Shown piece after piece: positions 2,018 through 28,376 of a stretch of DNA of 64,000 nt. Within the stretch, counting starts at the first letter, position 1. Every line of letters begins with the position of its first letter. Below the pieces are notes generated by a model. It searched no databases and had not been told where the DNA came from. It saw only the letters and a program-made list of their open reading frames with translations. The position numbers were made by a program, and so were the translations under genes. The DNA comes from Escherichia coli (GTDB taxonomy: Bacteria > Pseudomonadota > Gammaproteobacteria > Enterobacterales > Enterobacteriaceae): NCBI RefSeq assembly GCF_048403405.1, contig NZ_CP183129.1; one strand, 5' to 3'.

Positions 2018-3127
2018 TCACTCTGTTTCCGCTATCCATTCCGGGATTTTTGCCTCAAGCTCAAGCTGCGTGGTAAAGCCGCTGTTATCAATAGTGTGCT
2101 CGGCTTTTGCAATGATCCAGTCCTGATTATCAATCTCGCTTTTAAATCCTGTTACCGTACCATGCATTTCGGGGTAGAGTTCTGCACGTCCACGCGCCAG
2201 CGTGATGGAGAATGATGCGGCTCCGCGTTGTAGTTGCTGCCACTTTGCCGCCGCTGCGCGTCTTGCTGCCTGTTCGTTCTGATAGGTCTTGCGTAACACA
2301 AACACATTGCCTTCCGCGCCTTCCATATAATCACCTTCACGGCTGCTGCTTTTCTCCTTTTGGGGTTTTGGTGGTTTGCGGCGTTTCACGCTGACTTTTT
2401 TCTTTTCCCCGTAATTAAGATCAAGCCAGTAGGCGCGTACCCCCGTATACGCCTCGCGGTCAGCAATACGGAACTGATGGCGATCGCCGCTGCTGCGTGT
2501 AATGGCGAACGAGGGCAACGGCTGGCCCTGTGCGTTCACGCCACCACCTGGCATGATGAATAACAGATTGCCGCTTTTTACCGTGGTGATTGCGCCCAGC
2601 ATTTCCGCCATGCGCGTAAGGAAGGACATGTCGCTTTCTTCGGTCTGGTCGGCGTGGTCGATTTCGATATCCATCAGCATTTCGCTGATTTGTGGTTTCA
2701 GACCATACCGATGAGCGATGGCGGATACCACACGCTCAACGGTCACATCATGCCAGGACACCTCACGTTTAACGTTAAATTCATCCCGAAAATCTGCGCT
2801 TCTGGCTGAAACAGTCAGCCTGTCCGGCGGTCCTTCGTGAGCGATTTCATCAACAATGTAAGTGCCTTTTTCTGTCAGCGGTTCTCCTTTCCAGCCAATG
2901 AGAACCGTCAGGCGCGCGCCCCGTGGCGGTAGCTGCAACTGACCATCCGCATCATCCAGCGTGATGGTGAGCTGGTCCGCCTCAAATCCCCGGTTGTCGG
3001 TCAGTGACAGGCTCATCAGGCGCTCTGCCACGCCTGACAGCGTTTTACCCTCCGCGAGAATATCAAAATCCGGCATTTTCACGGGGTCTGTGCCCTGACT
3101 GAGCAATTGCATGGTGGTGTCGGTCAT
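2018..3127 (-). CDS. D: tail protein gpD (late control D family)
   Basis: The ORF-track 413-aa frame was trimmed to ATG 3127, which is preceded by AGGGAGGGAACAG. The protein MTDTTMQLLSQGTDPVKMPDFDILAEGK... is the P2 D family. Confidence 0.88.
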   Translation of the reverse strand: MTDTTMQLLSQGTDPVKMPDFDILAEGKTLSGVAERLMSLSLTDNRGFEADQLTITLDDADGQLQLPPRGARLTVLIGWKGEPLTEKGTYIVDEIAHEGPPDRLTVSARSADFRDEFNVKREVSWHDVTVERVVSAIAHRYGLKPQISEMLMDIEIDHADQTEESDMSFLTRMAEMLGAITTVKSGNLLFIMPGGGVNAQGQPLPSFAITRSSGDRHQFRIADREAYTGVRAYWLDLNYGEKKKVSVKRRKPPKPQKEKSSSREGDYMEGAEGNVFVLRKTYQNEQAARRAAAAKWQQLQRGAASFSITLARGRAELYPEMHGTVTGFKSEIDNQDWIIAKAEHTIDNSGFTTQLELEAKIPEWIAETE

Positions 3128-3181
3128 CTGTTCCCTCCCTGTGCGGCATGGTCGCATGTGCGTGCGGAGGGGGTTACTGCT

Positions 3182-3207
3182 TTTTGTTGTCGCCGGGTCG
3201 GGAGAAC
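3182..3207 (+). promoter_or_regulatory. candidate late-promoter activator box TTTTGTTGT-N12-AGAAC upstream of FI
   Basis: The same 9-mer, N12 spacing and AGAAC recur upstream of terminase gene P (22101-22126). It resembles the TGT-N12-ACA Ogr site of P2 late promoters and is centred about 90 nt before the FI ATG. Confidence 0.3.
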
Positions 3208-3284
3208 GGCGCAGGGGTGAGATTACGCGCGTGGTGGGTGATGATTGTTGCCGAATCATTTAACGGATACAAGGGGCTGAAGCT

Positions 3285-4469
3285 ATGAGTGAAACTCGTT
3301 TTCATGGTGCCCGTGTTACGGAAAATACCGACCTGGTAACAGCGATTAACGATGTTGATTCCAGCGTTATCGGTATCGTGGCAACGGCGGATGATGCGGA
3401 CGCGAAGCTGTTCCCGCTGAATAAGCCCACACTGCTGACCCGCGTCAATGACGTGCTGGGAAAATGCGGGACAACGGGGACGCTTTATCGTGCGCTTAAG
3501 GCCATCGCAGACCAGGTGAGCACAAAGGTGATCGTCGTTCGCGTGGCTGAACACAAAGAAGAAGACGGAAAGACGCAGGATCAACTGGTTATCGGTGGTT
3601 CTGAGGATGACGGCAGCTATACGGGGATGTATGCGCTGCTTGTTGCAGAGCAGGATGAAAGCATCGGATACCGTCCGCGTATTCTGGCCGCGCCGGAGCT
3701 GGACACGGAGGCTGTAACAAAATCCCTGTGCGTGATTGCAGGTAAACTGCGCGCGTTTGTGTATGCCTCATGTCACGGCTGTAACACGATGGCTGAGGCG
3801 ATTACCTACCGCCAGAAATTCAACGAACGTGAGGTGATGCTCTTATGGCCGGACTTCATCGCCTACAACCCGAAAAGTGGCAAAAACGAAACGTTCCCCG
3901 CGCCTGCCTATGCGTGCGGCCTTCGTGCGTACATTGACCATGAGCAGGGCTGGCACAAATCGCTGTCCAACGTTCCGGTTAAAAATGTGCTGGGAATGTC
4001 CAGGCATGTGTTCTGGTCGTTGCAGGCCGAAGACAGCGATGCCAACAGCCTCAACAACAAAGAAATCACGACCATTATTCGTCGCAACGGGTTCCGCTTC
4101 TGGGGCAACCGCACACCGGAAACGAACGCCTACATCTTTGAGGTGTATACCCGAACCGCACAGGTGCTGGCTGATTCAATTGCGGAAGCGCAGTTTGAAA
4201 CCATCGACAGTCCACTGACACCTGCGAACGTGAAGGATGTTATCAGCGCCATCAGGGCAAAACTGGATTCGCTGGTTACTGCCGGGAAACTGATTGGTGT
4301 GGAGTGCTGGTATGACGTGGTGGATAACGGCACCACGAATTTACGTCAGGGACGTGTGCGTATTCGCTACAAATATACGCCTGTTCCCCCGCTGGAAGAC
4401 ATGGAGCTTTACCAGACGTTTACTGATGAATTCTTTGGTCCCGCATTTGCGGTGCTGGGAGGTGCCTGA
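3285..4469 (+). CDS. FI: contractile tail sheath protein
   Basis: ORF track 394 aa, P2 FI family. It is followed by the tube gene with a TGATG overlap. Confidence 0.95.
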   Translation: MSETRFHGARVTENTDLVTAINDVDSSVIGIVATADDADAKLFPLNKPTLLTRVNDVLGKCGTTGTLYRALKAIADQVSTKVIVVRVAEHKEEDGKTQDQLVIGGSEDDGSYTGMYALLVAEQDESIGYRPRILAAPELDTEAVTKSLCVIAGKLRAFVYASCHGCNTMAEAITYRQKFNEREVMLLWPDFIAYNPKSGKNETFPAPAYACGLRAYIDHEQGWHKSLSNVPVKNVLGMSRHVFWSLQAEDSDANSLNNKEITTIIRRNGFRFWGNRTPETNAYIFEVYTRTAQVLADSIAEAQFETIDSPLTPANVKDVISAIRAKLDSLVTAGKLIGVECWYDVVDNGTTNLRQGRVRIRYKYTPVPPLEDMELYQTFTDEFFGPAFAVLGGA

Positions 4470-4981
4470 TGGCTGTACCAAAACATCTTCGCTTTTTTAC
4501 GTTGTTTGTGGATGGTGAAAACGAAGTGGGTAAAGTGACATCCGTCACGCCGCCCAAACTGACGCGCAAAACCGACAGCTATCGTGGTGGTGGCATGATG
4601 GGGGCGGTAAGTATTGATCTCGGTCTGGACGACTCCGCGCTTGATGCGAGTTTTGTCATGGGGGGAGCTGTTCGTGCGCTGTTCCTTAAATATGGCGGCA
4701 CGATTGACGGCACGCTGCTGCGTTTTGCGGGTGAATACTACACCGATGCAGAAAGCGATCTGTATGAAATCGAGATGCGCGGGCGTGTGACGGAAATTGA
4801 TATGGGGGAAGCCAAACAGGGCGAAGCCACATCACACACTTACGCTGTCAAAAACACCTACTACAAGCTGAGCGTTAACGATCGCCCGCTGTGGGAAATC
4901 GACCTGTTGAACCACATCTACCGGAAGGACGGCAAGGACATTGTGCCTGACCGTATCCGTTCCGCGCTTGGGCTTGGCTGA
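4469..4981 (+). CDS. FII: tail tube protein
   Basis: ORF track 170 aa (MAVPKHLRFFTLFVDGENEVGKVTSVTPPKLTRKT...), P2 FII family. Confidence 0.95.
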   Translation: MAVPKHLRFFTLFVDGENEVGKVTSVTPPKLTRKTDSYRGGGMMGAVSIDLGLDDSALDASFVMGGAVRALFLKYGGTIDGTLLRFAGEYYTDAESDLYEIEMRGRVTEIDMGEAKQGEATSHTYAVKNTYYKLSVNDRPLWEIDLLNHIYRKDGKDIVPDRIRSALGLG

Positions 4982-5036
4982 TAAGTAATATGCAGGCGGC
5001 GCAGTGCGTCGCCTCTGACTGAAAAGGAGACAACTG

Positions 5037-5411
5037 ATGAAAGACATCGATACTGAAACCCGGAATAACACCGTGGCGGATGATGTGACGGCAGGTGAGG
5101 ATATGGCTGTCGAACGTGGCGTAAAACTGACCCGACCAATTGAGCGTGGTGGCGAAAAAATCACGTATGTGGAGATCACCGGGGCTATTGAGCAGGCTGG
5201 ATCCCTGCGTGGTCTGTCGCTGTCTGATGTGCTGAATCTGAAAGCGGATACCATGTTTACGCTGTTGCCTCGCGTGACCTCGCCACGACTGGATGAAGTG
5301 ATGATTAAAAAAATGTCGTCACGCGATTTTATTCAGTTGTGCGCTGTGGCTGTAAATTTTATGAGCGAGCCAGACTCTGGCGCGAAGAGCGTGCAGGAGA
5401 CGGCAGCGTAA
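5037..5411 (+). CDS. E: tail assembly chaperone gpE
   Basis: Position and size between the tube gene and the tape measure gene; ORF track 124 aa. Confidence 0.8.
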   Translation: MKDIDTETRNNTVADDVTAGEDMAVERGVKLTRPIERGGEKITYVEITGAIEQAGSLRGLSLSDVLNLKADTMFTLLPRVTSPRLDEVMIKKMSSRDFIQLCAVAVNFMSEPDSGAKSVQETAA

Positions 5412-5575
5412 TCACCCTGGTGTGCTTTGAGCACATCGAAGATCTGGTGGCGGATATTGCCGCCATTTTTAACTGGTCGCCCGCCGAAATCTTCATGATG
5501 ACGCCCGGCGAAGTGGTTAGCTGGCGCGAGCGGGCGGCACTTCGCAGCGGGAATGCAGATAATGAAGACTCTTGA
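5037..5575 (+). CDS. E+E': gpE+E' fusion made by programmed -1 frameshift on an A7 run (5307-5313)
   Basis: The -1 frame is open from 5309 to 5575 (ORF-track 5339..5575 is its tail). The slippery AAAAAAA lies in the E frame (AUU AAA AAA AUG). This is analogous to P2 E/E+E' and lambda G/GT. Confidence 0.6.
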
Positions 5576-8369
5576 TATCCGGGTCGCTTTCAGCGCCGTT
5601 GACAGGCTGACCCGGCCTGCCGAAAACGCCCGCCGCCTGATGGGGCAGTTTGGTGACTCCATCCAGCGAACGCAGGGGGCGATCAAAAATCTCGAGCGTC
5701 AGGCGCGTTCATTTGAGCGCGCCCGTGACGCTGTCAGTAAAGCGGATGCTGGCATCGTGAAAGCACGACGCCAGCTTAACGCCCTTAATCAGTTACAACG
5801 CACGGGTACAGTGCTCAGCGAAAAACAACAAAAGCTGATGCAGCAGTTAAGCACCCGGCTTGAACGCCTGAATGAATCGCGCACACGGGAAATTCAGAAA
5901 ATGCGGGAGCTTGGCGGAGAGCTGAAACGCCACGGCATTTCCCTGACAGGCAGCGATAACACCATCCAGCAGGCCATCAGACGCACCGAACAGTACAACA
6001 ACCAGCTTGAACGCGAACGGCAGGCGCTTGCGCGTGTAACGCGGGCGCGTGAGCGGTATTCGCGCGCGCAGGAAACAGCGGGAAAACTGAAAACAGGTGG
6101 TGCGCTGGCAATTGGTGCGGCAGCGGCGGGCGGCTATGCTGCCGGGCGTTTTTTGCAGCCTGCGATCGGGTTCGGCAAAGAGATGTCCCGCGTTCAGGCA
6201 CTGACGCGAATCGACCAGAACAGCCCGCAGTTTAAGGCGCTGCGTGAGCAGGCGTTAAAACTTGGCTCTGAAACGCAGTTCACCGCAGGCGATGCCGCCA
6301 GTGGACAGGCATTTCTTGCAATGGCTGGCTTCACTCCGCAGGCCATTCAGGCTGCGCTTCCCGGCGTGCTGAGCATGGCAACGGCTGGCGGTATGGATCT
6401 CGGCGAGACGGCAGATATTGGCTCAAATATCCTGACGCAGTTCGGCCTTTCTGCTGACCAGATGGACCGGGTCGGTGACACACTCACCGCAGCGTTTACC
6501 CGTACCAACACTGACCTTCGCGCACTGGGCGAAACCATGAAATATGCAGGTCCGGTGGCGGGTAAGCTGGGAATATCGCTGGAGCAGGCCGCAGCGATGG
6601 CTGGCGTGCTGGCGAATATGGGCATCAGAGGGAGTGATGCCGGGACGGCAATGCGTGCCAGCCTGGCTCGTCTGGCATCACCGCCAAAGGCGGCGGCAGA
6701 AGCTCTGAAAGAGCTGGGCGTGTCCGTCTCGGATGCCGGGGGCAAAATGCGCCCGATGGAGGATGTGCTGGCCGACCTTTATAAAGCCACCCGTAAATAC
6801 GGGGAAGTTGACCGGGTATCGTTCTTTAAGGACATTGCCGGAGAAGAGGCTTTCACATCGTTTATGGCGCTCGTTGATGCAGCGGGTGACGGTTCCTTAC
6901 CCAAACTGAGAAAAGAACTTGAAGGCGCGCGCGGTGAGGCTGAACGCACAGCAAAGGTTATGGCCAACAACCTTGACGGCGATCTGAAATCACTCGGCAG
7001 TGCATGGGAAGGGTTGCGCATCCGCATTGCAGATCTGATTGACGGTCCGCTGCGTTCTGTCACGCAGTGGCTCACGCGGGTGGTCTCAAAAGTGACGGCA
7101 CTGGCGCAGGCCCATCCGGCACTGACGCGCCAGTTACTGATAGCGGGAGGTGCACTGCTGGCGACAACAGCAACGGTTGGTTCGTTGTCTCTGGTTATTG
7201 GGGTGCTTCACGGGAAGCTGGCTACGTTACGTCTCGGTTTTTCTCTCCTGACCGGATCAATGAATGCTGTCAGGGGCCTGCCAGCACTATGGGGAATGGT
7301 GACGGGTTCCGTTTCTTTACTGGGAGGCGCTATCGGGGCGCTGATCAGTCCGGTTGGTCTTATCGTGGCTGCGCTTGCCGGAGCTGCCGTTCTTATCTGG
7401 AAATACTGGGATCCCATCAGGGCATTTTTTGCCGGGGTGTTCAGCGGGATTATGGAAAGGCTGACCCCGTTGCGCGAAACCTTTGAACGGTTTGGTCCTG
7501 TTTTTGACGCAATCGGAAGCGGGATCAGCCAGGTGTTTAACTGGTTTAAATCGCTGCTGTCACCGATGGAGTCCAGCAAGGAAACGCTGGATAAATGTAC
7601 CAGTGCTGGCGAGATATTCGGTAACGTTCTTGGCGGTGCGTTACAGCTTGTTCTGACACCTGCAAAAATGCTACTGGATACGCTGGCGTGGATACTTGAA
7701 AAACTTGGCGTCCTTCCGGATGAAGCGGAAAAGGCGCGCAAGAAAATCGAAGACGCACAGCGTGCGGCCATTCTTCAGGACAAGGTTGCCTTGCTTCAGG
7801 GGGACCTTGCGAAAATCAATCCGCCGAAGCCTGTGGAAAATGGCAATGGCACCGGAGGTGATAAACCCAAAGACAACAAACCGCTCACAGACAGCAATAC
7901 CGGGACGCTACGCAGACTCAGCAAAATTGCTGATAACACAGGTAAGCTGGTTGATGAGACGAAAAAACGCATTGGCCCTGGCGATATTGTCTTTAAGAAC
8001 CTGCCCCGCGCACTTGCTGTTCGTGGGGAGTGGCAGGAGCGGAAGATTGCGCAGGTCAGTAAGCCTGCCCCCGCAATTAATATCACACCCGTAGTCCCGG
8101 CTCCGCTGCCTCCGGCGCTGGTCCCTGTTGTTGCGGCCAGCTCCCGCCCGGTGGCGGAGGCCATACGATCGCCAGTGGCATCAGTTCCTGCAGCTTCCCG
8201 TAATCGGGAGCCTGCTGTCTCCAGATTTGGCGGTGAAATTCATGTTCATCTGCATAACGTTGTTACGCAGAATCCCCGCGAACTGGCGAAACTGGTCGGT
8301 GAAATGGTCAGGGCAGAGATGGAACGGCGCGCCCGTGCCGGACGTGGCAGTTTTTACGATAAAGATTGA
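5553..8369 (+). CDS. T: tail tape measure protein
   Basis: ORF track 938 aa with coiled-coil and Gly/Ala-rich hydrophobic segments, in the position after E/E'. The start could be ATG 5562. Confidence 0.9.
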   Translation: MQIMKTLDIRVAFSAVDRLTRPAENARRLMGQFGDSIQRTQGAIKNLERQARSFERARDAVSKADAGIVKARRQLNALNQLQRTGTVLSEKQQKLMQQLSTRLERLNESRTREIQKMRELGGELKRHGISLTGSDNTIQQAIRRTEQYNNQLERERQALARVTRARERYSRAQETAGKLKTGGALAIGAAAAGGYAAGRFLQPAIGFGKEMSRVQALTRIDQNSPQFKALREQALKLGSETQFTAGDAASGQAFLAMAGFTPQAIQAALPGVLSMATAGGMDLGETADIGSNILTQFGLSADQMDRVGDTLTAAFTRTNTDLRALGETMKYAGPVAGKLGISLEQAAAMAGVLANMGIRGSDAGTAMRASLARLASPPKAAAEALKELGVSVSDAGGKMRPMEDVLADLYKATRKYGEVDRVSFFKDIAGEEAFTSFMALVDAAGDGSLPKLRKELEGARGEAERTAKVMANNLDGDLKSLGSAWEGLRIRIADLIDGPLRSVTQWLTRVVSKVTALAQAHPALTRQLLIAGGALLATTATVGSLSLVIGVLHGKLATLRLGFSLLTGSMNAVRGLPALWGMVTGSVSLLGGAIGALISPVGLIVAALAGAAVLIWKYWDPIRAFFAGVFSGIMERLTPLRETFERFGPVFDAIGSGISQVFNWFKSLLSPMESSKETLDKCTSAGEIFGNVLGGALQLVLTPAKMLLDTLAWILEKLGVLPDEAEKARKKIEDAQRAAILQDKVALLQGDLAKINPPKPVENGNGTGGDKPKDNKPLTDSNTGTLRRLSKIADNTGKLVDETKKRIGPGDIVFKNLPRALAVRGEWQERKIAQVSKPAPAINITPVVPAPLPPALVPVVAASSRPVAEAIRSPVASVPAASRNREPAVSRFGGEIHVHLHNVVTQNPRELAKLVGEMVRAEMERRARAGRGSFYDKD

Positions 8370-8375
8370 GGAGTC

Positions 8376-8870
8376 ATGGTCATGATGATGATCTACGGCA
8401 TGTTTGTTTTTGAGCTGCGCACACTGCCGCATCAGCAGTTACAGCAAAACAAAAGCTGGCGGCATGTGAAAAATGAACGCGTTAACCGTTCAGCAAGCTG
8501 GCAGTATATAGGTGCAGGTGATGATCGCATTGTGCTTTCCGGCGTGCTTTATCCTGAAATTACAGGTGGCGAAGTGTCGCTTTCGTTGCTGACCACGCAG
8601 GCATATACAGGACGCCCCTGGCCTCTGATTGATGGTGTCGGGCAGATTTACGGCATGTATGTGCTGACTGAAACGAATACGACCCGTTCCGAGTTTGATC
8701 GCTACGGTAAGGCGAAAAAGATAGAATTTTCACTGACCCTTGAACGCTGTGATGAGGATTTGCGGGAGCGCCTGCAATCCTCATCATTCAGCGATATGCT
8801 GTCCGGCTTCAAAGATAAGGTGACATCATCTCTTAACAGCGCGGCCAGTTCAGTTAAAGGGCTGTTCTGA
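8376..8870 (+). CDS. U: tail protein gpU
   Basis: MVMMMIYGMFVFELRTLPHQQLQQNKSWRH... resembles P2 U. ORF track 164 aa. Confidence 0.9.
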   Translation: MVMMMIYGMFVFELRTLPHQQLQQNKSWRHVKNERVNRSASWQYIGAGDDRIVLSGVLYPEITGGEVSLSLLTTQAYTGRPWPLIDGVGQIYGMYVLTETNTTRSEFDRYGKAKKIEFSLTLERCDEDLRERLQSSSFSDMLSGFKDKVTSSLNSAASSVKGLF

Positions 8871-8875
8871 TTTAA

Positions 8876-8913
8876 CACAAAAACCGCTAATGGTCAGATT
8901 AGCGGTTATTTTG
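8876..8913. terminator. bidirectional intrinsic terminator between convergent U and invertase
   Basis: The stem AACCGCTAA/TTAGCGGTT (8882-8890 / 8899-8907) is flanked by an A-run on the left and TTATTTT on the right. Confidence 0.6.
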
Positions 8914-9493
8914 TTTCCTGACTCTTCTCTATTGTTCCGATTGATTCTCCTGCGGGGTGGTAACGATAAATCGTCGATATACCAATGCCGTAAATTATTG
9001 CCAGTTGTTTTCTGTCGTGCCCGTTTTTGATCAGCCTTGCTATTTGCTCATGCTGTTCTTTTGTCAGCTTCGGTCGACGTCCGCCTGTGCGCCCCCGTGC
9101 GCGTGCTGCCGCCAGTCCGGCCAGTGTACGTTCAACAATTAATTCACGTTCCATTTCAGCCAGGGCACCCATCACGTGGAAGAAAAAACGCCCCATTGGA
9201 GAAGATGTATCTATGCTGTCGGTCAGACTGCGAAAATTAATTCCTCGCTCCCGTAGTTCCCCGACGAGAGAAATCAGATGTTTCATGCTTCGCCCGAGGC
9301 GATCCAGTTTCCAGACAACCAGCGTGTCACCTTTTTGAAGGCGCTTTAAAGCGCGTTTTAATCCCGGTCGGTCTGTCTTTGTCCCGCTTAATTTATCTTC
9401 AAATATTTGTTCACATCCTGCACAAACAAGAGCGTTTCGTTGCAGGTCTGTATTCTGGTCATTTGTTGATACCCTTACATAGCCAATCAGCAC
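8906..9493 (-). CDS. serine DNA invertase (Gin/Pin/Cin/Hin family)
   Basis: Nearly colinear with Mu Gin as I remember it (LIGYVRVSTNDQNTDLQRNALVCAGCEQIFEDKLSGT.TDRPGLKRALKRLQKGDTLVVWKLDRLGRSMKHLISLVGELRERGINFRSLTDSIDTSSPMGRFFFHVMGALAEMERELI). The likely start is GTG 9493 rather than the ORF-track TTG 9511. Confidence 0.95.
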   Translation of the reverse strand: MLIGYVRVSTNDQNTDLQRNALVCAGCEQIFEDKLSGTKTDRPGLKRALKRLQKGDTLVVWKLDRLGRSMKHLISLVGELRERGINFRSLTDSIDTSSPMGRFFFHVMGALAEMERELIVERTLAGLAAARARGRTGGRRPKLTKEQHEQIARLIKNGHDRKQLAIIYGIGISTIYRYHPAGESIGTIEKSQETK

Positions 9494-9547
9494 GCTGAAT
9501 CTCCCGTCCAAAAGCGCAAATCATGCCATGCAGGCCGGAAACGGCCA

Positions 9548-9573
9548 TTATCTAAAACCTCGGTTTACAGGAA
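9548..9573. repeat. gix/cix-like crossover site (left)
   Basis: The reverse complement of TTATCTAAAACCTCGGTTTACAGGAA is TTCCTGTAAACCGAGGTTTTAGATAA, close to Mu gix. A 25-bp exact inverted repeat links 9557-9581 with 12612-12636. Confidence 0.85.
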
Positions 9574-10581
9574 ACGGTAAACAAGGCTGGTAACGCCGTC
9601 CAAAAGACAGGCGATATCTTGTCCGGTGGGCTTACTTTTGAAAACGACTCAATCCTTGCCTGGATTCGGAATACTGACTGGGCAAAGATTGGTTTTAAAA
9701 ATGATGCCGACAGCGATACTGATTCATACATGTGGTTTGAAACAGGCGACAACGGCAATGAATATTTCAAATGGAGAAGCAAACAAAGCACCACAACAAA
9801 AGACCTGATGAATCTTAAATGGGATGCTTTGTCTGTTCTTGTTAAAGCCCTTTTCAGCAGTGAAGTAAAAATATCGACAGTCAATGCACTGAGGATATTT
9901 AATTCATCTTTTGGTGCTATTTTTCGCCGTTCTGAAGAATGCCTGCATATCATCCCGACACGAGAGAATGAGGGAGAAAATGGTGATATAGGGCCACTAC
10001 GCCCCTTTACGCTTAATCTCAGAACTGGTCGGATAAGCATGGGGCATGGTCTTGATGTTACAGGGGATATATTTGCAAACCGTTTTGCAATTAACAGTAG
10101 TACCGGCATGTGGATTCATATGCGTGACCAGAATGTTATTTTGGGACGCAATGCGGTATCCACCGATGGTGCACAGGCATTACTTCGTCAGGACCATGCT
10201 GATCGCAAATTTATGATTGGTGGGCTGGGAAATAAGCAATTTGGCATCTACATGATTAATAACTCAAGGACAGCTAATGGCACCGATGGTCAGGCGTACA
10301 TGGATAATAACGGGAACTGGCTTTGCGGTTCGCAAGTTATTCCCGGCAACTATGGCAATTTTGATTCCAGATATGTGAAAGATGTTCGACTTGGTTCACA
10401 GCAATATTATGGAGTGAACAACTGGCAAACATGGAATTTCCAGTGCCCGTCAGGTCATGTATTGTCTGGTATTAATGTTCAGGATACAGGGTCCAACTCT
10501 GCCGATAATATAGCGGGCGTTTATTACAGACCCGTTCAAAAGTATATAAATGGCACCTGGTATAATATAGCGAGCGTTTAA
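9556..10581 (+). CDS. promoterless alternative tail-fibre C-terminal cassette (Sv'-like), expressed only after inversion
   Basis: The frame is open from the stop at 9553 and reads [15 protein letters not shown]... The LGLQETVN at the crossover is identical to H (..[14 protein letters not shown]..). Both cassettes end ...INGTWYN(A/I)(G/A)S(I/V). Confidence 0.8.
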
Positions 10582-10582
10582 T

Positions 10583-11110
10583 ATGATGCACTTAAAGAAC
10601 ATAAAAGCGGGTAATGCTAAAACACTGGAACAGTATGAGTTAACAAAGAAGCACGGAGTCATCTGGCTTTACTCTGAGGACGAAAAAAACTGGTATGAGG
10701 AAGTGAAAAACTTTCAGCCAGACACCATAAAGATTGTTTACGATGCAAATAATATTATTGTCGCCATCACTAAAGATGCCTCCACGCTTAACCCTGAAGG
10801 TTTTAGCGTCGTTGAGGTTCCAGATATTACAGCCAACCGCCGCGCTGATGATTCAGGAAAGTGGATGTTTAAGGATGGAGCTGTAGTTAAACGGATTTAT
10901 ACGGCAGACGAACAGCAACAACAGGCCGAATCACAAAAGGCCGCATTGCTTTCCGAAGCTGAATCAGTCATCCAGCCGCTGGAACGCGCTGTCAGGCTGA
11001 ATATGGCAACAGACGAGGAACGCACACGACTGGAAGCATGGGAACGCTACAGTGTTCTGGTCAGCCGTGTGGATACGGCAAATCCTGAATGGCCACAAAA
11101 GCCTGAATAA
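10583..11110 (+). CDS. alternative tail fibre assembly chaperone (G'/U'-like)
   Basis: [40 protein letters not shown]... is paralogous to the 11139-11672 product (Tfa family). Confidence 0.85.
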
Positions 11111-11115
11111 AAATT

Positions 11116-11135
11116 AAGGCCCGCTATCGGGCCTT
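11116..11135. terminator. hairpin between convergent G' and G
   Basis: AAGGCCCG-CTAT-CGGGCCTT perfect stem. Confidence 0.5.
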
Positions 11136-11138
11136 GTC

Positions 11139-11672
11139 TCATTCAGGTTGTTCGGGAAATGTTACTGGCAGGCTGGAGGTGTCTGTAGATTCGACTTTCT
11201 GCGCATAGAGCATCCACTCGGTTAATTTTGGTTTATTCTCGTCGGAAATGATGCCCAGCCGTAGCTGTGAGTCCCATAGCTGGGTTTTATCCCTGACAAG
11301 TTGCAACAGGCTTTGCTTTTCATTTTCCGCCTGCTGCCTCTGCTCTTCCTCGGTATAAGTTCGCTTTACCACTACGCCATCTTTGAACATCCATTTACCC
11401 GAAATGTCAGCACGGCGATTTGCTGTAATATCAGGTAATTCAACGACGCTTGCGCCTTCCGGATTAATTGCTGAAACATCCTTTTCAATACAAATAATAA
11501 CGCCGTTATGGTCATAGACCATTTTTAAAGTGTCTGGCTGGAAATTCTTTTGTTCCTCATACCAGTTTTTTCCATCCTCTGAATAAAGCCATTTGATGTT
11601 AAATTGTTTCGTTAGCTGGTATTGCTCTTTTGTTTTAGGGTTGCCAGCAGTAATGTTTTTTAAGTGCATCAT
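11139..11672 (-). CDS. G: tail fibre assembly chaperone
   Basis: ORF track 177 aa, [40 protein letters not shown], directly downstream of H. Confidence 0.9.
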
Positions 11673-11674
11673 CG

Positions 11675-13777
11675 TTAAATACTCCCCGCGTTATACCACG
11701 TCCCATTAATGCAATACTGAATTGGCCTTGCCTGAGTTGTATCAATTAATTCATCACGGTTTCCGTTAACTGAACCCGTAACGACATAACCTGACCTGTC
11801 AGACCAGCCGGGACCATTCCATGTCTGAACAGATGACAGACCGCCAAGGCGAATACCTGTAATAAACCTTGAGTTACATTCTGCCTGCGTGTATGCACCA
11901 ACATCTCCCGCTGAGGGTTTGCGGGTCGTGGTGTAAAACTCTGACCAGTCAGCTTCAAAGCCATAACCATCACGCGCTGAACGATAAAAAATGCCGCCGT
12001 TCCTGTAATTCACGCGGAACTGTACAGCAGGGCAACTCCCCGCATTCATATTGAAATGAAGAATTAACGTTGATGCGCCGGTGATTCTGGCGCAATAAAC
12101 TCCGCTGTTCCAGTTCCAGCCAACAGCTTTATCATTTCCGACAGTGCTTCCTGTTTGCCCTAAAGCAAATGCAGGTTGTTGATTTTTCGTGTTGTAGTCT
12201 CGTCGCCAGCCAGGAGCGTAAGCATCACCATGATTGATATAAGTGAATTGAGCGTTAGTAATTCCGCCACCGCTGGACGTGCTCGGCGTGGTAACGCGTA
12301 TGGTCATTGCGCCGCGAGTGCCAATAACTTCCACCACAGCACCTGCAAGACAAATATTTCCGCAACCTGTATCTGTAATGACCTTATTATTTGCATAAGC
12401 CCATGAGCCTTTGCACATCCAGTAAGGATGGTTAAATGCTCCCTGACTCTCCAGCCACGAAATAAATTGCGCGGTTGTCCAGACCTGACTATCGCCACCA
12501 ATATTCAGCCATGCGCTATATGCGCGGCAGGCACCAATATTTTTGGTGAAGGTATCTTTTCCTGGAATATCTGCGCCGTTCTGGTTTTTCTGTAATGCGC
12601 CAGAAGCCTGATTTACCGTTTCCTGTAAACCGAGGTATTCGATAACGGCAGCAACGGTCGATTTCGCAAGAATATCCCGCCCGACTTTTGTCAGGGTTGC
12701 CAGGCTGGCGACATCATTCCCCGTAAAATACGGAAACCTGTCTGCCGCAGTAGCAAGCCCGGCCAGCGCCGTCAGGGTGGCATCTTTCGGTTGCTTACCC
12801 GCAAGCGCTTTAGTCATGGTGGTCGCAAAATTCGGGTCGTTTCCCAGCGCCGCCGCTAACTCGTTCAACGTATTCAGTGCGTCAGGCGACGAGTCTACAA
12901 GTGCGGCAATCGCGGCCATCACATAAGCCGTGCTTGCGATCTGAGTATTATTAGTCCCTTTTGGCGCAGTTGGCGTTGTTGGCGTTCCGGTCAGTGCAGG
13001 ACTATTTAAGGGCGCTTTCTTGTTCGTTTCATCCATTACCGCCTTAACCGCTTTTGGCGTCGCAGCCAGCGTTTCAGATGTGCTGTTGGTGGCGCTACTG
13101 AGCTGAACTATCCCTTTTCGCGCAGTGGTAGCGTCCTGTGCGGTGTATTTGCCATTAGCCAGGTCATATGCCGCCTTAACAGCCTTTGGCGTTGCCGCAA
13201 GCGTTTCAGACGTGCTGTTAGTGGCGCTGCTAAGTTGAACAAAGCCTTTTGCGGTCAGCGAGGCGTCCGGGTGACGTCGTGAGTGTTCATGCTCTTTCAG
13301 TTTGTCATCCACGTAATCCACTGTGGCCATCACCATGGTGTTATCCACGGTAAGCGCCACGGTGGCAGTGCTGGATACGGTCAGAATGGTGCGAAATGTT
13401 TGTGCACGTCCTGACCCTTCGGCAACGGCTGGCTTGTAACTTTCGGCAGTATTGCCTACTGCGATTAAATCGCCGTGCTCATCAAACACACCAATTTCCC
13501 GGATCCAGAATCCGCCCGTTTCTGGAGGAATAACCAGCTCCGCAATAATGCGGTTCTGATGTGTTGCGTCCAGTATGACGCGATTAACAGTGTGTCGCCA
13601 CACCTCATGCACCAGACGGGTCTGCTTACTGTCTGGTGTGGGCAACGTGCCGCCACCGTCGCCCACGGCCATATGAGTCAGGCGGACAGGCTTACCATCT
13701 GGCGCGGCTGCCTGAGCTAATTTTTTTGCACCCGTATCGGTGATAACGGTTTTAAATTTTCGTGTTGTGGTACTCAT
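11675..13777 (-). CDS. H: tail fibre protein (constant N-part fused to the currently active variable C-part)
   Basis: ORF track 700 aa with P2 H-like N-terminus and phage fibre repeats. The crossover site lies inside the gene at 12620-12645. Confidence 0.9.
12620..12645. repeat. gix/cix-like crossover site (right, inside H)
   Basis: TTCCTGTAAACCGAGGTATTCGATAA, the inverted partner of 9548-9573. Confidence 0.85.
13041..13240 (-). repeat. tandem ~68-bp repeat pair inside H encoding (G)[24 protein letters not shown] twice
   Basis: 13041-13108 and 13173-13240 are near-identical by eye. This is the typical phage tail fibre repeat. Confidence 0.7.
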
Positions 13778-25634: not shown

Positions 25635-26132
25635 ATGAACCCAATAACACTACAAATCATCAGCAATGCTATTGTTCTGCTTGGCGTTTTGGTTGCCATT
25701 GGAACCATTATCTACAATGTGCGTACCGCAAAAAAAACTCAAACGGCCAACTTTCTTTTTGAGAGTCGGCAAGATATGCAATATATAGAGTCATTGCATA
25801 CCCTGAAACAAGTGCATCGTTCAGGCAAATCATTTCGTTCTTATGTTTTTCCTTGTGATGGTTGCATAATAACAGATGAAGAAATGGCCGAGCGTCGAAA
25901 ATTTCAATATATTTTAAATTTTTACGAGCGAGTTGCTGTAAGTATTCGTGAAGGTATTTATGATGAAAAAATGATAAAAAGAACATCTTACACAACAGTT
26001 GTAGAGACATATGATATTGCCGAGCCATTAATTAAAGCAATCAGAGAAAGCATTAATTCGGATACTACATATCAAGAATTCGAATGGTTAGTAAGAAGAT
26101 GGAAAGCTAATCCTTTACGGAAAAACAAATAA
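25635..26132 (+). CDS. cargo protein 1: single N-terminal TM helix plus ~130-aa helical soluble domain, function unknown (reminiscent of DUF4760-type proteins)
   Basis: ORF track 165 aa, AT-rich. There are no enzyme motifs I can recognise. Confidence 0.8.
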   Translation: MNPITLQIISNAIVLLGVLVAIGTIIYNVRTAKKTQTANFLFESRQDMQYIESLHTLKQVHRSGKSFRSYVFPCDGCIITDEEMAERRKFQYILNFYERVAVSIREGIYDEKMIKRTSYTTVVETYDIAEPLIKAIRESINSDTTYQEFEWLVRRWKANPLRKNK

Positions 26133-26171
26133 TGTTTTACCCTTTAATTTACAAGTAACACAGGGGGAAGT

Positions 26172-27014
26172 GTGACACAGAATCCGTTTTCATTTTATGA
26201 CTTTTTGGGCTATCTAATTCCAGGTGGGTTATTCCTGTTTATCCTTTTTTTGTTTTCTATTGAAATTAACCCTGTTTATATAGAAGGTATTCTTAACCAT
26301 ATCCTGAAATATAAAGAAATAATAAGTGTATTTATATATGTGGCATTAATCGTTCTATCATATATTTCAGGTCACTTCATATCTATTCTATCATCCTGTT
26401 TAATTGAAAAATACATGAACAGTAAACTTGGGTATCCTTCAATTTATCTGTTTTCTAAAAGAAGCTCCCTGAAAATAAAACGACATAATACTAAGTTCAG
26501 TATAGTTAATTTTATTCGTGGAGTTTTTTTATTTCCTGTATCAGCTTTTGATAAAGCAGAACATCATAAAACCACACTGCATTCTATACTTATTAAAGTC
26601 TTTTGGCCGCAAATACGAGATGGTTATATAAATGTTTTTTCTGTATCTACGCTATATCGACGTAAGGGCTTGAGGGGCAATCTTTTTCGCCTTGCTTATC
26701 ATTATGTGTATGAACATTCTAAAAATCATCAGGTGAAAATGCAAAACTATGTTGCTTTGTATGGTTTTTGTAGAAACATTACATTTGTTTTTCTCGCTTC
26801 AGTCTGGTTGCTTATGTTCCTGCTCCTTCTATCCTTTTTAATAGATATAAATATCAGACTGTTACCTTTTTGTTTTCTTCTCTTGTTTTGTATTGCTGTA
26901 TCCCGAGTATTTTATTATGGTTTTGTTAAGTATTATCGCCGCTATTCTCTTGAGGTTTTAATGGCATTTGCGGTACTTCAGCACGATAAAAAAACTTCGG
27001 CAATTTCATCATGA
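26172..27014 (+). CDS. cargo protein 2: polytopic membrane protein, function unknown
   Basis: ORF track 280 aa with a GTG start after GGGGGAA. Hydrophobic helices sit at the N-terminus (FYDFLGYLIPGGLFLFILFLF, IISVFIYVALIVLSYISGHFISIL) and the C-terminus (ITFVFLASVWLLMFLLLLSFLI, LLPFCFLLLFCIAV). Confidence 0.8.
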   Translation: MTQNPFSFYDFLGYLIPGGLFLFILFLFSIEINPVYIEGILNHILKYKEIISVFIYVALIVLSYISGHFISILSSCLIEKYMNSKLGYPSIYLFSKRSSLKIKRHNTKFSIVNFIRGVFLFPVSAFDKAEHHKTTLHSILIKVFWPQIRDGYINVFSVSTLYRRKGLRGNLFRLAYHYVYEHSKNHQVKMQNYVALYGFCRNITFVFLASVWLLMFLLLLSFLIDINIRLLPFCFLLLFCIAVSRVFYYGFVKYYRRYSLEVLMAFAVLQHDKKTSAISS

Positions 27015-27097: not shown

Positions 27098-27412
27098 TTA
27101 TTCTGGGAATAAGGTCTGAATATTCTTTTTTATTCTATAAAAATTGCATTCAACTCCGCTAGGCTGATTATCCTGGTATGTTTCCTTGATGCTAACGGTA
27201 TTGAAGGGGAGGTTGTCCTCTGGCCATTCGGCCATCCAGTAGGCAAATGCTGGGTTGCGCTTTATGAGCGCTAGCCCAGCCAGAAAGGCCGCGCGTTGCG
27301 CGCGGCTGCGTTCGGAGGCTGGTAGGCTATCGAGGTAATTGCACGCCTCCTGTTCACTCTTGACGGCGGCGGGCTTCAGATAGAAACTTATCCGTCTGGT
27401 TGGTGTCGTCAT
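27098..27412 (-). CDS. parR: ParR-like centromere-binding adaptor
   Basis: Trimmed to ATG 27412. MTTPTRRISFYLKP...YLDSLPASERSRAQRAAFLAGLAL parallels R1 ParR (..TLDSIPQGERSRLNRAALTAGLAL). Confidence 0.8.
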   Translation of the reverse strand: MTTPTRRISFYLKPAAVKSEQEACNYLDSLPASERSRAQRAAFLAGLALIKRNPAFAYWMAEWPEDNLPFNTVSIKETYQDNQPSGVECNFYRIKKNIQTLFPE

Positions 27413-27416
27413 TGGT

Positions 27417-28376
27417 TTACTCCTTGTCCATTGCGTACAGCCCATTAACCAGAGCAAACTGTGGCACCCCGTCCGCGATGAAAGTCGCATTAACTCCGCA
27501 GACTTCGCGGATAGCGGGTGCCACAATCTCCGCCCCTCCACCGACAACCATCACCCGCCCGTAACCCGAAAAAACCGCCAGCGCGCGGATCACGCGTTGT
27601 TTCAGTGTTTCTTCCTTTTCACGAATAACCGCCATCAGGCTGGCGTAATGCGCGTCATTGTGGATGTGCTGGCGCAGCCAGGCTTCATCATGGCGATGTT
27701 CGATAATGGTATTGGCGATGTGGTGACTGGTGCGCATACCGTTAGTGGCCATCACCGACAGTACGGCATCGGCCATCAGGGAAACGCCTACGTGTGGATC
27801 GCAAAACACCTGGCTGATACCTGCCAGTTGCCCTTGAACCTTTGCCACATCCAGCGTGGTTCCGCCTAAATCCACAATCAGCAGGGATTCAAACGGACTC
27901 ATGTCAGCCAGTGCTTTAAAGCCAGCCGGAATGGATTCAGGCATAACCCGCACGTTACGGATAGTGAATGCTTCGCCGTTCTGGTACTCCACCGAGCGCA
28001 TAACGTTCGCTTTTTTGCGGTTGATGTTGGCCATGTCCGGCTGTGCGTTTGTCTCGAAATACTCGCTCAGTGGCAGGGTGACAACCACATCCACCTCTTG
28101 TGGCGTGATGCCTGATTTGACCAGCGCGTGATGAATGGCGATTACATTCACATCGCTGTACTGGTATTGCGTGTCGGTCGTCTGGACAAAGCGATCGCTG
28201 ACCGGATCAAAACCATAGCGCACGCCATCAAGCATGTAGTTCGCGGGCTGCATGCCACCGAACGGCGCAGACCATTCCGACTTGAAGCTGTTCGGGCTGA
28301 TGGCGTTGCGGCGTTCGCCATTCTCAGTCCATGCCAGCTTGATGTTGGTGGAGCCGTCGTCGATACAAATTTTCAT
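27417..28376 (-). CDS. parM: ParM/StbA actin-like segregation ATPase
   Basis: MKICIDDGSTNIKLAW...ISPNSFKSEW...YSDVNVIAIHHAL...VMPESIPAGF...LIVDLGGTTLD...GVSL...VMVVGGGAE is colinear with plasmid R1 ParM as I remember it. Confidence 0.95.
   Translation of the reverse strand: MKICIDDGSTNIKLAWTENGERRNAISPNSFKSEWSAPFGGMQPANYMLDGVRYGFDPVSDRFVQTTDTQYQYSDVNVIAIHHALVKSGITPQEVDVVVTLPLSEYFETNAQPDMANINRKKANVMRSVEYQNGEAFTIRNVRVMPESIPAGFKALADMSPFESLLIVDLGGTTLDVAKVQGQLAGISQVFCDPHVGVSLMADAVLSVMATNGMRTSHHIANTIIEHRHDEAWLRQHIHNDAHYASLMAVIREKEETLKQRVIRALAVFSGYGRVMVVGGGAEIVAPAIREVCGVNATFIADGVPQFALVNGLYAMDKE

Follow-up and report, generated by a model that had tools for sequence, protein, structure and literature searches.

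A Gin-type invertase and an invertible tail-fiber segment in a P88-like prophage of Escherichia coli

Tail-fiber segments that are inverted by a dedicated recombinase are known from Mu (the G segment, with Gin), from P1 and P7 (the C segment, with Cin) and from e14 (with Pin), and Goldberg et al. used sequencing and PCR to show that P2-like prophages of enteropathogenic E. coli (EPEC) also carry phase-variable, invertible fiber loci (PMC4272514). Here we describe such a locus in a window of 64,000 nucleotides (nt), by which we mean the whole stretch of DNA that was analyzed, from E. coli contig NZ_CP183129.1 (assembly GCF_048403405.1). The original prediction for this window was that a Gin/Pin-type invertase flips a segment of about 3.1 kb, and in doing so exchanges the C-terminus of tail-fiber protein H together with its chaperone. 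Homology, intact anatomy and comparative evidence of inversion all support that proposal, and we consider it very likely that the window holds an intact, working copy of the Mu G/P1 C type of host-range switch, lodged in what its sequence identifies as a P88-like prophage (Xuanwuvirus, Peduoviridae). The feature is not new: the records of P88 and its relatives annotate it, and the E. coli genomes that contain it number in the hundreds. Its biology is textbook; mild interest attaches only to the mosaic structure of the invertase and to the silence of the P88 host-range study on inversion.

Relationship to described phages

In P88, phages 503458 and 520873, and Citrobacter phage phiSM (Xuanwuvirus), the genes are ordered as in the window: V-W-J-I-H-chaperone, then the silent chaperone and fiber end, the invertase, and U-T-E-FII-FI in reversed orientation. 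Both gix crossover sites of P88 are identical to those of the window, the flanks of the segment show 92-97% and the segment itself 91% nucleotide identity, and the invertases are 98.5% identical. The deposited P88 genome differs in that its segment is turned the other way: the S-type tip is the expressed one, and H has 764 amino acids (aa). H has 700 aa in the window and 661 in phage 503458, and the number of fiber repeats in its constant part differs among these phages. In the window, an 80-nt direct repeat in the constant part (13039-13118 and 13171-13250; 84% identical, 132-nt spacing) corresponds to the Phage_fiber_2 repeats, and differences in repeat number probably explain the three lengths of H.

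Mu resembles the window in the catalytic domain of its invertase and in the enhancer region, both of which are essentially identical, as well as in S' and U' (98% and 97%) and in U (91%). The window's segment aligns with the G segment of Mu in two blocks, 9548-9852 (305 nt, 95.4% identity) and 10039-12648 (2,613 nt, 88.6%), on the opposite strand relative to the flanks. However, the constant part of the fiber is S-type in Mu but P2 H-type in the window, and Mu is transposable whereas the window phage belongs to the P2 family. Mechanism and layout are also common to the C segment of P1 and P7 and to e14, with homologous U, U' and variable parts of S (P7 Sv' is 80% identical to the window's silent cassette), but P1 differs in its Cin, which is 73.5% identical to the window invertase, in its cix sites, which have a central TT and the inner arm GGTTTAAGAGAA, and in the length of its segment (4.2 kb).

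P2 and 186 possess a homologous tail module (V, W, J, I, H, G, FI, FII, T, U and D; 34-62% aa identity). The claim that these two phages lack the switch holds for the invertase, the second site and the alternative cassette, but it overlooked that each of them keeps one relic gix-like site at the LGLQETVN junction: H of P2 contains TTATCGAATATCTCGGTTTACAGGAA (4858-4883 of the P2 stretch), which is 1 nt away from the H-internal site of the window, and gene K of 186 is annotated with a 'Mu-like inversion crossover site' (3963-3988 of the 186 stretch). Because of these single relic sites, P2 and 186 look like one-cassette versions of the same fiber design.

Anatomy of the switch and evidence for its inversion

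To the gix sequence of Mu (TTATCCAAAACCTCGGTTTACAGGAA, taken from the Mu record), the 64 kb contain exactly two matches with at most three mismatches, where shuffled sequence gives an expectation of 0.00, and these are the two 26-bp inverted sites that had been predicted (Table 1). No third gix site, which would allow a multi-state shufflon such as that of an EPEC P2-like prophage (PMC4272514), was found at this threshold in the 64 kb. The two sites are inverted relative to each other and both keep the central TC, with all differences from Mu gix confined to the outer half-site (TTATCT/TTATCG...AT in the window sites versus TTATCC in Mu); the invertase-proximal site is identical in P88 and in E. 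coli genomes GF8, GF161 and EC476. The repeats do share an exact core of 25 bp, ACCTCGGTTTACAGGAAACGGTAAA, but this core is not contained in the 26-bp sites, as had been supposed: at 9557-9581 and 12612-12636 it is offset from them, its identity reaching inward into the segment. Weaker similarity around the core extends the repeats to arms of 62 nt (9544-9605 and 12588-12649) that are 79% complementary. One site falls, as expected, within the open reading frame of H, and translation yields the same peptide, LGLQETVN, across the site in both frames.

The constant N-terminus of the fiber lies outside the segment, inside which S' and U' are encoded on the minus strand and S and U on the plus strand, so that the layout of open reading frames agrees with the predicted arrangement of an H C-terminus with its chaperone facing an alternative pair. 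Pfam domains of H comprise a P2-type Phage_tail_fib N-terminal collar and Phage_fiber_2 repeats, and the last 318 residues, from the site on, are 98.1% identical to Mu S'. Comparison of the cassettes with those of Mu identifies the expressed set as Mu S'/U'-type and the silent set as S/U-type. In the silent cassette, the first start codon comes no earlier than position 9619, and a scan of 8800-9700 returned no sigma-70 consensus upstream of it. No stop or frameshift interrupts its 341 codons, so that the hidden frame disruptions named in the original prediction as a possible refutation are absent. Its tip is 94.7% identical to the SfMu fiber, 69-71% identical to Mu S, and 83.5% (tblastn) or 86.7% (local alignment) identical to the C-terminal end of H that P88 expresses. 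The silent chaperone shares 90.9% identity with Mu U and 88.6% with P2 G. NCBIfam was uninformative for these proteins, with no family above cut-off for the invertase (best XisF, at 98 bits versus a cut-off of 375) and none for the fiber and chaperone proteins.

The invertase starts from a GTG at 9493, as does Mu gin, and a mechanical open reading frame call from a TTG at 9511 is probably too long. Pfam assigns residues 2-134 to Resolvase (1.3e-50) and residues 137-180 to HTH_7 (1.5e-13), and the solved Gin structures 4m6f and 3uj3 match the protein at E values of about 1e-100. Over 181 aligned residues it is 85.6% identical to Mu Gin; in line with the predicted near-identity of the N-terminal half, only two of the first 119 residues, which make up the catalytic part, differ (117/119 identical), and the region around the YVRVST motif with the catalytic serine (VLIGYVRVSTNDQ) is the same in both enzymes. 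The 5' end of the gene, where an enhancer had been proposed to lie, indeed includes a putative one, recognized by its identity with Mu gin and by the position of the enhancer in P1 cin: all 72 nt of the equivalent stretch and 118 of the first 120 nt of the gene match Mu gin, and the stretch lies 85-156 bp from the center of the proximal gix site, as in Mu. Together with the sequence upstream, the 5' part of the gene aligns to Mu without gaps over 484 nt (91% identity). By this likeness to Mu gin the enhancer is present, and it would presumably depend on Fis.

When 9562-12631 is inverted in silico at the central dinucleotides, H remains in frame and becomes a protein of 721 aa that is identical, at 721 of 721 positions, to an annotated tail protein of E. 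coli EC476. The invertase of EC476 is identical to that of the window over all 195 residues, as is that of strain UID2404240038, so one and the same allele is found beside opposite orientations of the segment: flipped in EC476, and as in the window in UID2404240038. Probes of 801 nt spanning either the observed or the flipped H junction were counted, at a coverage of at least 80%, in 5,426 complete E. coli genomes. The observed junction occurred in 125 genomes and the flipped junction, a sequence that does not exist in the single orientation present in the window, in 353, and each probe had matches of 100% identity across its full 801 nt. Among sister isolates, GF8 and GF161, two isolates from chicken meat that belong to a single Swiss series and have the prophage at an almost identical coordinate, are related by the flip: inverting the 3,070 bp of GF8 in silico gives the sequence of GF161 with 0 mismatches over 12,796 bp. 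P88, too, aligns with the flanks of the window on one strand and with the segment on the other, with switch points within the inverted repeats. These comparisons support the view that the element inverts in nature, and are as strong as evidence of this kind can be.

Table 1. Features of the invertible tail-fiber locus, in window coordinates
Feature	Position	Strand	Details
Bidirectional hairpin terminator	8882-8907		10-bp stem and T-run on both strands; also an inverted repeat
Gin-type serine DNA invertase, 195 aa, GTG start	8906-9493	-	Pfam Resolvase and HTH_7; homology to Mu Gin
Presumed Fis-dependent recombinational enhancer	9404-9475	-	nt 19-90 of the invertase gene; position equivalent to the enhancer annotated in P1 cin
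Invertase-proximal gix site	9548-9573	+	TTATCTAAAACC-TC-GGTTTACAGGAA; crossover dinucleotide 9560-9561; 1 mismatch to Mu gix
Silent C-terminal fiber cassette (S-type)	9556-10581	+	Open over 341 codons; Pfam Gp34_trimer
Invertible segment, 3,070 bp between crossover dinucleotides	9562-12631		Bracketed by the gix sites
Silent tail-fiber assembly chaperone (U-type, P2 G-like), 175 aa	10583-11110	+	Pfam Caudo_TAP 8.5e-38
Expressed tail-fiber assembly chaperone (U'-type)	11139-11672	-	Pfam Caudo_TAP 1.9e-36; 97.2% identical to Mu U'
Tail-fiber gene H, present configuration, 700 aa	11675-13777	-	Constant part 12632-13777; variable S'-type part 11675-12631
H-internal gix site	12620-12645	-	TTATCGAATACC-TC-GGTTTACAGGAA; crossover dinucleotide 12632-12633; 2 mismatches to Mu gix

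Mechanism, competing explanations and the mosaic invertase

Modelled on the established Gin/Hin pathway (PMC3798978 and general knowledge), inversion would begin with dimers of the invertase binding both 26-bp gix sites, and Fis bound to the enhancer within the 5' end of the invertase gene would assemble them into an invertasome where supercoiled DNA branches. The central TC would then be cut in all four strands, one pair of subunits would rotate by 180 degrees, and the ends would be religated to flip the 3,070 bp. Each flip would provide the constant part of H, its first 382 residues, with either the S'-type tip, along with chaperone U' (700 aa, the state of the window), or the S-type tip, along with chaperone U (721 aa), such that a population of lysogens would release two kinds of virions with different receptor specificities. 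We infer the expression of the invertase in this strain and, likewise, the actual receptors. The two orientations would be expected to confer different host ranges, since one tip is 98% identical to Mu S' and the other 69-95% identical to its S-type counterparts in Mu, P88 and SfMu; the two tips of Mu recognize different lipopolysaccharide core structures.

Several observations weigh against a working switch. The evidence for inversion is comparative and comes from other genomes, and choices made in assembly, or RecA-mediated exchange at the repeats, could in principle account for differences in orientation among assemblies. In its DNA-binding domain the invertase shares only about 54% identity with Gin, and the outer half-sites differ from those of Mu; because of this divergence, the kinetics or specificity of the enzyme could differ from those of Mu. 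In addition, the scan of 8800-9700 found no sigma-70 consensus promoter upstream of the invertase, which we do not take as evidence against its expression; Mu gin is also weakly expressed. The missing consensus promoter and the single orientation in the window would nevertheless fit a locus whose parts are intact but which does not invert in this strain, either because the invertase is unexpressed or because the mosaic enzyme is inactive, with the S/U cassette left as a silent relic, and P2 and 186 show that lineages can indeed end with a single relic site. We regard such a standstill as highly unlikely, since the identical invertase allele sits beside both orientations in other genomes, neither the 341 codons of the silent cassette nor the 175 codons of its chaperone show any decay, and the flip is all that separates the near-identical sister isolates GF8 and GF161.

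Even less probable, to the point of being barely credible, is that both orientations arise by RecA-dependent recombination between the inverted repeats, or as artifacts of assembly, with no role for the invertase. The repeats do have in common an exact core of 25 bp and high similarity over about 45 bp, as a result of which the crossover cannot be mapped within the core by sequence comparison. However, an exact repeat of 25 bp is very short for RecA, and the repeats are bona fide gix sites with a Gin homologue adjoining and an enhancer identical to that of Mu. Both orientations are, moreover, frequent (125 versus 353 genomes) and clean, with 0 mismatches once the segment is flipped exactly at the central dinucleotides, and published experiments have found reproducible inversion equilibria at such loci (PMC4272514). 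The inversion of cryptic prophages by PinQ and PinR has been reported to block adsorption of T2 (PMC12529663), which, along with other lysogen-benefit cargo on this prophage, raises the thought that the switch might act mainly in the lysogen, where fiber or chaperone products made after inversion would change the cell surface and exclude superinfecting phages. We give this scarcely any credence: the prophage looks complete and of an inducible type, no sequence feature points to expression in the lysogen, and H belongs to the late operon. In P2, the late operon needs Ogr and is silent in lysogens.

A switch that works in this strain is thus the reading we retain, and the invertase that would drive it is itself of composite origin. 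Its gene matches Mu gin at 341 of the first 360 nt but at only 97 of the following 180 (nt 361-540), and this divergence marks it as a mosaic. The C-terminal domain reaches 93-98% identity only within P88-like phages, as opposed to about 54% with the Gin proteins of Mu, D108 and SfMu, and its helix-turn-helix is slightly nearer to that of Hin (26 of 46 residues) than to that of Gin (24 of 46). It still contains, as EQIARL, the Q-x-x-R-L motif at the position aligned to Hin Q151, R154 and L155 in helix 1 of the DNA-binding domain, residues that contact Fis; McLean et al. describe the motif as conserved only among Fis-dependent invertases (PMC3798978). It is conceivable, if on balance rather unlikely, that the mosaic enzyme (a Gin catalytic domain and enhancer with a clade-specific, more Hin-like DNA-binding domain) and the altered outer half-sites of gix form a co-evolved pair with changed specificity, partly insulated from the other, often coexisting Gin, Pin and Cin invertases; if so, such pairs would limit cross-talk among invertible prophage loci within one E. 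coli cell.

The invertase allele of GF8 and GF161 (9540-10127 of each locus) differs from that of the window by R47L, M108I and G109S. Residue 47 is one of the basic residues of helix B for which conservation in Fis-dependent invertases has been described, and residues 108 and 109 fall in the region of the oligomerization helix, where activating mutations are known.

For annotation and typing, the consequences are practical. The silent cassette is usually annotated as a hypothetical protein or a truncated fiber reading frame (in GF8, 'hypothetical protein'), and recognition of the switch matters mainly for correct annotation. The host-range study of P88 mapped its specificity residues to HR1 (576-695) and HR2 (716-746), which lie inside the invertible S-type cassette, and mentions neither inversion nor a second cassette (PMC5285337). 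Anyone predicting the host range of a P88-like prophage should reckon with two receptor-binding tips instead of one. At least 80% of the first 25 kb of the prophage is present in 475 of the 5,426 complete E. coli genomes, and with about 9% of genomes bearing this prophage type, in either orientation, the switch is useful knowledge for phage-therapy engineering and prophage typing.

Prophage context

The prophage appears to be a complete member of the P2 family, with genes for an integrase, Cox, replication endonuclease, portal, terminase, capsid, lysis, a full tail, D and ogr, and the closest genome (99.6% identity over 25 kb) has it between flk and pdxB. Relative to P2, the block FI-FII-E-T-U is inverted (3285-8870 on the plus strand, versus 2018-3259 and 1715-1975 on the minus strand for D and ogr), whereas D and ogr run in the direction of the genes from V to G; the P2-type F operon is thereby split, with D diverging from FI. 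As a consequence of this inversion, the invertase abuts U rather than FI, and the hairpin terminator separates the convergent genes for gpU and the invertase. We considered whether the invertase itself had inverted the FI-U block at secondary sites, and dropped this idea because the ends of the block have neither inverted repeats nor gix-like sequences. Alignment with D of P2 suggests that the 413-aa reading frame of D probably starts later, near 3127.

The original prediction had the switch replace the Z/fun cargo locus of P2. In P2, the gene after G is fun(Z), and the F and V operons are colinear; in 186, this place is taken by a terminator followed by the sheath promoter. The switch does follow directly on the G-type chaperone, as fun(Z) does, but the analogy of position holds on one side only: on the other side comes the 3' end of U, which belongs to the inverted FI-U block. 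Nor is the host phage a P2 with swapped cargo: it belongs to a different, P88-like genus, and its tail proteins are 34-62% identical to those of P2.

Further cargo is found elsewhere in the prophage. PADLOC recognized no defense system among these cargo genes, the only hit being a weak match to Csx27. At the ogr-side end lie, all on the minus strand, a gene for a VasI/TagO-like protein (2-784) that is cut by the edge of the window, one for a zinc-ribbon protein (789-1121) and a hok/gef toxin gene (1384-1524). Next to the portal gene are a DUF4760 protein (25635-27014, plus strand) and a 280-aa protein (27098-28376, minus strand), the latter being the one with the weak Csx27-like match; this portal-side cargo occupies the place of the old/tin-type cargo of P2, and is followed by ParM-type segregation genes.

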